From a virus, in the IMG/VR virus record IMGVR_UViG_3300031823_000001, positions 64,001 through 128,000 of that record: a stretch of 64,000 bases of DNA; one strand, given 5' to 3'. Every line of letters begins with the position of its first letter. Position 1 is the first letter of the stretch. Position numbers and translations under genes: made by a program. The notes below the pieces were generated by a model. The model was not told the origin of the DNA. It saw only the letters and a list, made by a program, of their open reading frames with translations, and searched no databases. Positions 25,595 through 27,422 of the stretch are shown in pieces.

Positions 25595-27422
25595 TTGGCA
25601 AGCCAGTCTGATATTTCATCTCAGATCATCTCGGTCCTGGCGGCTAGCGAACCTGACCTTGACACCACCGTCGGTTCCGTGACCCGCAAGATCATCGACG
25701 CAGTTGCAGCTTCGATCTCAACTGCTTCGCTGGACCAGCAGATGTTGGCTTATCAATTAGCAATACGATATCAACTCGATGACCGGCGCCGCGCTCGACT
25801 CTTTCGTCCAGCTTTTCGGGATGTCCCGCTACCCGGCCACCCGGGCGGTCGGCACGGTTTCCTTCACCCGGGGCACCGCTGTCGATACCGCGACGGTCCC
25901 CTCCGGCCTCCAGATCGCCTCCGAAGACGGGTCGGTGGTAGCCGTCACCCTGACCGCCGTGATTCTCGACCCGGCGGCACTGAGCGGCACCGCGCCCGTC
26001 CAGGTGGTCACCGCCGGCCCGCAGGGCAACGTCGCCACCGGGACTCTCACACAGGTCCAGAGCCCGGTCGCCGAGATCACCGCCTGCACCAACGTCACCC
26101 CGCTGACCGGGGGGGCCAACCAGGAGACCGACACCCAGCTCCAGGCCCGGTGGAAGGCGACCGTCTTCAAGTCCATGGCCGGGACCAGCCAGATGTTCAT
26201 CGGCATCGCGACCAACGACCCGGACTGCACCGCCGCCAACGTGGTGGACGGGGCGACGAGGTTCCGCGAGCAGGTCCAGATCGCCAGCGGCGCGGCCACC
26301 TCCACGGTCTCCGACGCCCAGTACACCTACCCGTCGGGCCAGGTGGTCGGCCGGGACATCGACAACGGGGACGTCGCCGCGCCGGGCACCCAGTACATCT
26401 GGGACTACACAGCCGACCCGCCCTCGATCTCTGTCATCGACGCGAGCTACTTCCCCAACGCCGAGCTGGTTGACCTGTCGTTCCTCTACATGGACACCTA
26501 CTCGCGCAATTCGGCCGCCGCAGGGATCTACAGCCGGGTGGACGTCTGGTGCGCCGGCAGCCGCCCGGCGGCGGCTTCTGCGACGGTCAACTACCACAAC
26601 GCCACCACGTTCTCCAGCACCACCACCTCAAACTGGTACACGGGGGGCTTCGTGCGGCCCGACGGCACCGCGCCGGCCACGGGGAACGTCTTCGTCGCGC
26701 TGCCCTGGGGGCCGATCGTCACCCTGCCGCCGGTTCTGGTAGTCAACGGCGTCACCTACGGCCTGGCCACCCCCGTCTACCCGCTCGGCTCGGTGTCCGG
26801 CGGGGTCACCTACGCCTACCAGATCGTGCACCGCACCGGGGCGTTCGGCTGGAGCCCGTACTCTGACTTCGGCCTTGAGTGGGACGCTGCCTACCAGCCG
26901 CCCTCAGGGTCCGCGATCACCCTGAGCGAGAACTACACCTACAACAACGTCCCGGCCGCCATCCAGGCGGACCTGGAGAACTGGCGGCTGGCCGGCCAGG
27001 ACGTCCTCGCCCACCAGGGCATCCCGGTTTCCCTCCAGTTCTCCCTCGCGGTCATCTTCGACCCGAGCGTCACCCAGTCGGTCACCCAGACCTCGATCAA
27101 CACCAGCCTCCAGACCTATCTGTCGCAGCTCGGGTTCAACTCGCGGATCTACCCCTCCAGCGTCATCCAGGCAGTGGAGAGCACCCCGGGCGTCATCGCC
27201 TCCCGGTTCCTCACCGGGGCCGACTACCCCGCCTGGAACTCTGCGGCCCCCGACAACTTCAATGTCGGCATCCAGCAGGTCTACGAGGGCGTGGTGGCAC
27301 AGAGCTACGTGGACAGCGGGGGCAACCCGGTAGACGTCGCCCTCGGTGCGGCCCAGCTCCCGACGTTCGGCGGCGCGGTCGTCGTGCCGAAGGCTGGTAA
27401 CACCATGGGGCCGTTCAGCTAG
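25595..27422 (+). CDS. Baseplate J-like protein, frame broken by 7-nt insert 25757-25763 (join 25595-25756,25764-27422; ~606 aa)
   Basis: EPDLDTTVGSVTRKIIDAVA..LAYQ continues as YDINSMTGAALD..ATRAVGTVSF..GGANQETDTQL in +1 frame. Confidence 0.85.

Follow-up and report, generated by a model that had tools for sequence, protein, structure and literature searches.

A TTA-headed insert in the baseplate J gene of a soil actinophage suggests a short translational bypass linked to a homing endonuclease cassette

The window analysed here is a 64,000-nucleotide (nt) stretch of phage DNA, positions 64,001 to 128,000 of the IMG/VR virus record IMGVR_UViG_3300031823_000001, in which the gene for the baseplate protein J is interrupted by a short insert headed by TTA, and our subject is the candidate translational bypass by which full-length J may nevertheless be made. 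The record is a single, apparently complete contig of 161,740 bp with 69% GC and represents a soil actinophage of an uncultured, myovirus-like clade with high-GC genomes of ~160 kb. The two segments of J lie in different frames, downstream of an endonuclease open reading frame (ORF) and a leader (Table 1). Frame 0, opened by TTG 25595 behind the Shine-Dalgarno sequence AGGGGGTG, encodes MASQSDISSQ...LDQQMLAYQ and reads ATG TTG GCT TAT CAA (25754-56) TTA (25757-59) GCA ATA CGA at the break, and the +1 frame reads TAG (25758-60) CAA (25761-63) TAC GAT ATC AAC TCG ATG and runs to a stop at 27420-22. The insert consists of the in-frame UUA 25757-59, proposed to be a starved A-site codon, G 25760 and the proposed landing codon CAA 25761-63. 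In the +1 frame the Pfam family Baseplate_J (PF04865) matches with E 2e-26 and 93.2 bits, against a gathering cut-off of 21.1, and the second segment also matches the baseplate wedge subunit family phrog_6 of PHROG (E 3e-34). This is the layout that an initial annotation had described from the letters alone. It had also taken frame 0 to turn into nonsense after the break; the frame is indeed off there and rich in Arg, with the refinement that it meets no early stop and stays open as far as 26473 (292 amino acids, aa).

Table 1. Coordinates of the features in the window and of the inserts in related loci (window numbering unless a locus or the genome is named; GC3, GC content at third codon positions)
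Feature	Location	Strand	Remarks
146-aa baseplate protein gene	24596..25036	+	conserved left neighbour of J; PHROG phrog_2669, E 5e-16
HNH homing-endonuclease ORF, 134 aa	25039..25443	-	HNH motif and AP2 DNA-binding domain; phrog_99, E 2e-25
Putative cassette leader, ~150 nt	25444..25594	+	between endonuclease ORF and J start; carries the J Shine-Dalgarno sequence
J segment 1, codons 1-54	25595..25756	+	TTG start; recoded low-GC3 tract; ends in the proposed take-off codon CAA 25754-56
7-nt insert TTAGCAA	25757..25763	+	gap in the alignment with uninterrupted alleles
J segment 2	25764..27422	+	proposed resume codon TAC 25764; 552 codons and stop; Baseplate_J and Baseplate_J_C
Low-GC3 J tracts	25595-25756; L004:855-1016; L005:2819-2974
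Virion structural protein gene with second break	11500..12059	+	PHROG phrog_2756, E 6e-24
Second HNH homing-endonuclease gene	10562..11440	-	phrog_1872, phrog_59, phrog_20467, E 9e-16 to 1e-12
tRNA array	1-4800 (genome 60963-68798)	-	40 tRNA genes
J insert, L003			CAA TTAG CAA TAT; 7 nt; same insert as the window; JGI sample
J insert, L001/L002			CAA TTAG CAG TAC; 7 nt; two SRA runs
J insert, L004			CAA TTAAG CAG TAC; 8 nt; JGI sample distinct from that of L003
J insert, L005 (164-kb contig)			ACT TT ACC TAC CAA TAC; 5 nt, two codons upstream
J insert, L006			CAG TTAAT AAG TAC; 8 nt
Second-gene insert, L112			TGG TTACC TGG GAG; perfect landing
Second-gene insert, L110			TGG TTAA TGC GAG
Second-gene inserts, L114 (IMGVR_UViG_3300047585_000133)	L114:1480-1560		two sites: TGT T TAC GAG (4 nt), TTT TT ATC (2 nt)
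Second-gene insert, L109 (IMGVR_UViG_3300043778_000098)	L109:1420-1450		TCT TTA GGA GCC TAG TCT GGT; 15-nt in-frame insert

A search of 5.8 billion proteins returned 232 matches to J, and our statements on length refer to the best 120 of these. Full-length relatives among them are nearly all 605-609 aa long, most of them exactly 606 aa. The closest match among those listed, P0003, is uninterrupted, 97% identical and 606 aa long, and reads ..LDQQMLSYQYDINSM.. (..YQYDINSM..) across the site. Codons 1-54 of the window joined to the 552 codons from 25764 likewise give 606 aa, with exactly the junction of P0003, so that the length of ~606 aa first suggested for J is that of the family. Y53, Y55 and D56 are invariant among 22 diverse J homologues, and the DNA of uninterrupted alleles is almost invariant at the site (TAC CAG TAC GAC ATC). 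When these uninterrupted homologues are aligned they read YQ-YDI with no additional residue, as had been predicted. Among isolates, mycobacteriophage and Gordonia myoviruses come nearest, with 28% identity in J.

Seven of the best 120 matches are annotated as proteins of 533-548 aa beginning at Met60 or Met74. Where we examined the DNA of such short alleles, the N-terminal segment was intact, with its own start and Shine-Dalgarno sequence, and was followed by a short insert; for P0032, P0028 and P0123 the interrupted state was read from the protein ends alone, and in P0123 Thr replaces Met60. Some interrupted alleles start with TTG or GTG, with no clear difference in start codons from uninterrupted alleles. 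The same or a similar insert was found in independent assemblies (L001 and L002, L003 and L004), and in L005 the in-frame TTA is made up of the inserted TT and the A of ACC. Some J alleles need a shift of +1 and others of +2, and there is a single operation that restores the family sequence everywhere, namely a transfer of the P-site tRNA from the codon that precedes TTA to the triplet just ahead of the resume codon. In four of the five J insert forms this landing triplet repeats the take-off codon or is a synonym of it. Inside the lineage that carries TTAGCAR, the insert varies at a single position, the wobble base of its landing codon, and the N-terminal 54 codons of the window differ from those of L003 by 16 synonymous and 2 non-synonymous changes and from those of L001 by 8 and 2, respectively, a pattern of purifying selection on the N-terminal segment within the interrupted lineage, and we take both halves of the gene to be under such selection. 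A private inactivating indel had been named as one finding that would speak against bypassing; the break instead turns up again in relatives that have diverged, where the insert and both coding halves are conserved.

A second gene of the same genome, encoding a virion structural protein, is interrupted too. From its start GTG 11500 it reaches TGT GAG GGC TGG (11590-92) TTA (11593-95) AT TGT (11598-600) GAG (11601), which amounts to an 8-nt insert, at a place where four complete relatives are uninterrupted (..IAYCEGWEDSGQ.., ..CEGWEDSGQ..). The landing triplet TGT matches the take-off codon TGG at two of three positions. Among 13 IMG/VR relatives of this gene, four further ones are interrupted (L112, L110, L114 and L109), and these relatives offer 2-, 4-, 7-, 8- and 15-nt versions. 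L114 has two inserts, between which the sequence is read in the third frame; at the second of them tRNA-Phe would re-pair at +2 on UUU of the U run beside UUA. The insert of L109 is flanked by identical TCT codons, carries AGGAG 5 nt ahead of the landing TCT and contains a stop, and there is no start codon after this in-frame stop. Since it is in frame and includes a stop, only a hop from TCT to TCT could give the family sequence and no frameshift could, and to judge from its sequence we regard it as the cleanest natural argument favouring a hop over a frameshift.

Over both genes, 11 of 11 distinct inserts open with an in-frame TTA directly after the last shared codon, and the landing triplet is identical to the take-off codon in four of them, synonymous in three and matching at two of three positions in the other four. 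This pattern is far beyond chance. UUA is a rare codon of high-GC actinobacteria. In a rough gene set for the phage, with 171 ORFs and 46,076 codons, TTA is the rarest sense codon, with at most 13 occurrences (0.28 per 1000), several of them in doubtful N-terminal extensions; CAA is rare in the genome as well (59 CAA vs 1790 CAG). The phage tRNAs include Leu-CAG, Leu-GAG, Leu-CAA, Gln-UUG and Trp-CCA, and tRNA-Leu(UAA) was not found among them by ARAGORN, relaxed thresholds included. The relaxed settings added a 41st tRNA gene, an 87-nt tRNA-Tyr(GTA) at genome 61488-61574 in the array spacer. A genome-wide scan for other TTA-linked frame switches returned the two sites only. Two ambiguous frame changes lie outside the window, one at genome 129250 (GCG TTA TG CCC, with an ATG overlapping the TTA) and one at genome 153015, beside a GTTACC..GTTACC repeat 11 nt apart, and both may be ordinary gene overlaps. 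In-frame TTA codons at genome 108156, 108780, 39589 and 17129 were rejected because they are antisense to real genes.

The interrupted genes keep company with genes for HNH homing endonucleases. In most uninterrupted loci the baseplate gene and the J start are separated by 0-27 nt or overlap, compared with 559 nt in the window, and the interrupted loci all have additional DNA upstream of J (559, 564, 585, 296 and 151 nt). The 559-nt insertion is absent from L007, in which both genes abut, and the HNH ORF, which further matches phrog_4578 (E 4e-17) and Pfam AP2 (E 3e-6), is missing from most relatives. L003 carries the same HNH ORF as the window, at a contig edge; L001 keeps the ~150-nt leader as a remnant and no endonuclease ORF; L004 and L005 have, on the plus strand, a NUMOD4-HNH_3 gene that is unrelated to it; and the 296-nt upstream insert of L006 bears a tRNA-Met and no endonuclease. 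A tRNA-Met(CAT) between the baseplate gene and J occurs both at L006:354-428, where J is interrupted, and at L019:1690-1765, where it is uninterrupted. Several uninterrupted loci have upstream inserts encoding ORFs other than endonucleases, so upstream DNA alone is insufficient for interruption. The second HNH gene of the window lies immediately upstream of the second interrupted gene, in divergent orientation; its homologues are found upstream of L110 and L109, remnants of it in L112, and none at seven uninterrupted alleles. Thus, an HNH gene stands beside the interrupted alleles of the window, L003, L004, L005, L109 and L110, and a remnant beside those of L001 and L112. In L117 (453-1463) and L118 the HNH gene is present, there is no insert and the target is synonymously recoded (GGA GTT GAG GAT AGT GGT CAA), which is a conventional route to immunity. 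An annotated HNH endonuclease also directly adjoins the baseplate J gene in the cluster-C-like isolate Mycobacterium phage Cane17 (82603-84174), and given this arrangement the region around J may attract homing repeatedly.

The DNA of the window and of L007 is 93-98% identical both across the upstream gene and, within J, from ~25766 onwards, against 58-83% in J codons 1-54. Because the drop in identity is confined between the insertion point and the insert, the replaced patch ends at the 7-nt insert. Over 25451-25600 the window is 100% identical to L003, compared with ~80-87% between their J bodies; the leader is 82-100% identical to that of L001, whose J body is likewise ~80-87% identical, and is absent from L007. 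In a quickly built maximum-likelihood tree of the J bodies, the 8 truncated or interrupted alleles need 8 changes, of which well-supported branches force at least 7, and the uninterrupted P0003 is the sister of the window. We read the drop in the profile, the shared leader and the scatter on the tree as signatures of homing with co-conversion. The 7-nt insert is genuine and inherited, and it belongs to a mobile cassette that comprises the HNH gene, the ~150-nt leader and the recoded J codons 1-54 and has replaced the matching DNA in an otherwise L007-like phage genome. For the second gene the mosaic profile is not clear, for want of a close backbone relative.

The recoded tract also stands out by its composition. 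GC3 is 0.64 in J segment 1 of the window vs 0.94 in the body, and in J codons 1-50 of interrupted alleles it is 0.38-0.72, whereas 60 uninterrupted alleles average 0.91. The interrupted alleles' own J bodies have a GC3 of 0.94-0.97 (0.77 in L005), and the amino acids upstream of the break are conserved. It is possible that synonymous divergence, through hiding of the target or separate evolution of the cassette, tends towards A/T where genome GC3 exceeds 0.9. Another possibility is that slow codons thin ribosome traffic ahead of the stall, in which case the low-GC3 tract may be a further adaptation; for T4 gene 60, polysomes are reported to bypass less well than monosomes (bioRxiv 10.1101/2022.08.31.505936).

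We think it likely that full-length J is made by a short bypass triggered by UUA, of the kind proposed for the terminase of Streptomyces phage phiHau3 (see below), and that the element is carried on a homing cassette. The ribosome would arrive at CAA 25754-56 with peptidyl-tRNA-Gln in the P site on a weak, rare codon, and the UUA in the A site, being starved, would stay empty. The weakly paired tRNA-Gln would then detach, the mRNA would advance by 7 nt and the tRNA would re-pair on CAA 25761-63, after which decoding would restart at UAC 25764 and yield ..MLAYQ-YDINSM.., a protein of 606 aa. The hop itself is proposed from the sequences compared here. A micro-bypass of this type had been suggested initially for the window, and it gains support from the relatives, in that one re-pairing rule repairs the 7-, 8- and 5-nt alleles whether they need a shift of +1 or +2. 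Transcriptional slippage was rejected for lack of a homopolymer run, and a tRNA with an expanded anticodon because the step lengths range from 2 to 15 nt.

Other explanations of the break have to be weighed against such a hop. J might be a split gene, in which an N-terminal peptide that ends off frame joins non-covalently, and with no recoding, a 547-aa protein translated from ATG 25779 onwards. Gene callers do annotate 547-aa products in several relatives, the ATGA in L004, L005 and L006, in which the TGA that ends frame 0 and the ATG of Met60 overlap, is a classic coupling arrangement, and the conserved N-terminal segment that we see is required by a split gene as well. In the window, however, frame 0 continues for 238 codons over the body, so there is no termination near ATG 25779, and no Shine-Dalgarno sequence precedes this ATG. 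Nor does a split gene fit P0123, where the next ATG after the replaced Met60 is that of Met74 and its use would delete the invariant D56-G73, or L109, in which nothing after the stop could serve as a start. The ATGA overlap follows automatically from a +2 shift across the conserved ATG ACC, and a split gene gives no reason why TTA heads each insert or why the triplets before the resume codon match. Altogether we find this explanation unlikely. A dead allele or an artefact, that is, a sequence error or an inactivating repair scar in a defective genome surviving by complementation, seems to us less likely still, and the comparison of alleles already goes most of the way to refuting it. In its favour, the sequence comes from a metagenome assembly, homing cassettes, being selfish, can spread even at some cost, and the endonuclease ORF of the window appears decayed; yet at least four independent assemblies share this insert or a similar one, alleles sharing it have accumulated 8-16 synonymous vs 2 non-synonymous changes in 54 codons, two essential structural genes of one genome have such inserts with all halves intact, and random scars are not expected to begin all with the rarest codon.

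We give hardly any credence to conventional frameshifting, in which UUA would be read as Leu and a +1 shift on UUA-G would give YQ-LQ-YD and a product of 608 aa, with -1/+2 shifts in the 8- and 5-nt alleles. Frame 0 and the body frame of the window do differ by +1, and +1 frameshifting at hungry codons is well known (reviewed in PMC5009743). But a P-site tRNA-Gln slipping from CAA to AAU would be unpaired and would have UAG 25758-60 as its next A-site codon. The initial annotation had regarded a simple +1 slip at the TTA as impossible because of this TAG; it does exclude a +1 slip of the P-site tRNA-Gln with UUA in the A site, but a quadruplet reading of UUAG is not excluded by the TAG itself and is unlikely because of the comparative data. 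Indeed, the product would gain residues within the nearly invariant Y53-Q-Y55-D56, different alleles would require unrelated slips of +1, +2 and 0, and the in-frame stop of L109 could not be removed. In phiHau3, moreover, a stop in the +1 frame placed in the gap left recoding unreduced (PMC10732093).

Several observations weigh against the proposed bypass and its mobile origin. Four landings are partial, with AAG for CAG, TGT and TGC for TGG, and TAC for TGT, and the matching triplets could in part be a by-product of how the insert arose, for instance by duplication as a staggered cut was repaired, and not a result of selection for landing. Starvation for UUA in the actinobacterial host is inferred solely from the codon usage of the phage and its tRNA set. 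In L004, L005 and L006, termination and reinitiation yielding two polypeptides is possible. When 131 nt round the site were folded as RNA for six interrupted alleles and an uninterrupted one, the z-scores ranged from -0.6 to +1.2 and no stimulatory structure was detected, the fold of the window being no better than its shuffles (z -0.59), and the efficiency of bypassing may therefore be low. Furthermore, the longer minus-strand frame of the endonuclease (25593 down to 25039) holds an in-frame TGA at 25447-25449, and the HNH gene of the window may be truncated or decaying. Small palindromes at two of the breaks (GCTTA..TAAGC in L004, ACTTAT..ATAAGT in L006) include codons that would lie inside the ribosome at take-off and are possible traces of the origin of the inserts, not signals.

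By analogy with the gene 60 system, the insert probably exists since it destroys the endonuclease target in the invariant TAC CAG TAC GAC ATC and leaves the protein unchanged. A wider proposal is that homing endonucleases of this clade routinely travel with UUA-headed bypass inserts of 2-15 nt, which would be immunity patches acting at the level of translation, comparable to inteins or introns, with the side effect that virion assembly needs tRNA-Leu(UAA) to be scarce in the host; we advance it tentatively, as something slightly short of an even bet.

The closest parallel is the UUA-linked bypass proposed for the large terminase of phage phiHau3 (g6/g7/g8) and for StrepC.1 and S. catenulae prophages (Smith et al. 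2013 J Bacteriol; PMC10732093), so that the precedent named in the initial annotation does exist, in phiHau3 and two prophages. In phiHau3 it is supported by a junction peptide in E. coli and a test with a stop in the gap (Antonov et al. 2023 RNA Biol, PMC10732093). The phiHau3 record, which we checked, reads GGC TTA CTCC GGT AAG and TCT TTA ACGG TCC ACG, the same grammar as here. Both systems concern essential late genes of high-GC actinophages, with an in-frame UUA directly after the take-off codon, a short step (7 or 10 nt in the phiHau3 group, 7 nt in J), a landing codon that is the take-off codon again or a synonym of it (GGC..GGT and TCT..TCC in phiHau3, CAA..CAA in J) and uninterrupted homologues with a conserved junction and no added residues. 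They differ in the genes, a terminase there and baseplate J and a second structural gene here, and in the phages, R4-like siphoviruses there and here a ~160-kb myovirus-like phage with a J 28% identical to that of cluster-C-like mycobacteriophages. Here we also have many allelic inserts of 2-15 nt, read from sequence alone, which are tightly linked both to a recoded co-conversion tract and to an HNH homing endonuclease of the free-standing type, whereas the words 'homing' and 'HNH' are absent from the text of PMC10732093. A full-text literature search combining bypassing, UUA and homing endonuclease returned gene 60 and review papers only. The link to bldA is by analogy.

The linkage to an endonuclease recalls T4 gene 60, in which the 50-nt gap and MobA are reported to form a mobile cassette and, as experiments showed, the gap blocks MobA nicking (Bonocora et al. 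2011 PNAS, via bioRxiv 10.1101/2022.08.31.505936). Both systems have a non-coding insert in an essential, conserved coding sequence with matched take-off and landing codons, both unite insert and HNH homing endonuclease in one mobile cassette scattered on the tree of the host gene, and in both the endonuclease is often pseudogenised or lost and the insert kept, for which the in-frame TGA of the window and the remnant in L001 may be compared. The gap is, however, 50 nt in gene 60 and 2-15 nt here; gene 60 relies on a stop codon, a take-off stem-loop and a nascent-peptide signal, and here a starved sense UUA is proposed; J does not fall into two ORFs that have gained tails; and protection from cleavage is suggested here from analogy. 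From its sequence, the J element would appear to work like gene 60 but does not belong to the gene 60 family. The byps of Magnusiomyces capitatus mitochondria, GC-cluster-like and 27-55 nt long (Lang et al. 2014 PNAS, via bioRxiv 10.1101/2022.08.31.505936), resemble the present inserts as many short mobile inserts in essential genes that are bypassed between matched codons. They are not known to have an endonuclease partner, and unassigned codons, not UUA, play a role there. The proposed mechanism also resembles the bypassing, or tRNA hopping, of E. coli at hungry codons, where the A site is starved and the peptidyl-tRNA detaches, to pair again with a cognate or near-cognate triplet close by; that is a laboratory phenomenon of low efficiency in synthetic constructs, whereas here the configuration is natural and conserved in an essential gene. 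Such short hops were reportedly described by Weiss et al. in 1987 and by Gallant and Lindsley in PNAS in 1998, and near-cognate landing is said to be tolerated.

To our knowledge, natural bypassing has come to light in very few systems, namely T4 gene 60, Magnusiomyces mitochondria and three candidate terminase genes of Streptomyces phages and prophages. What is new here are the genes, the phage group, the many natural alleles and the linkage to HNH genes, which joins a trigger of the phiHau3 type to a cassette of the gene 60 type. About 11 natural variants of one rule, in two essential genes and with steps of 2-15 nt and perfect to partial landings, amount to a natural mutational series, well suited to asking what a starved ribosome needs for take-off and landing. 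On a practical matter, gene callers split or truncate these genes (547 aa for J, 119 aa for the structural protein), so that annotations are systematically wrong at such sites. The tie to homing endonucleases would explain why inserts with a UUA hop exist at all and would carry the logic of MobA and gene 60 into high-GC actinophages, in which the production of phage is predicted to be sensitive to the rare-tRNA state of the host.

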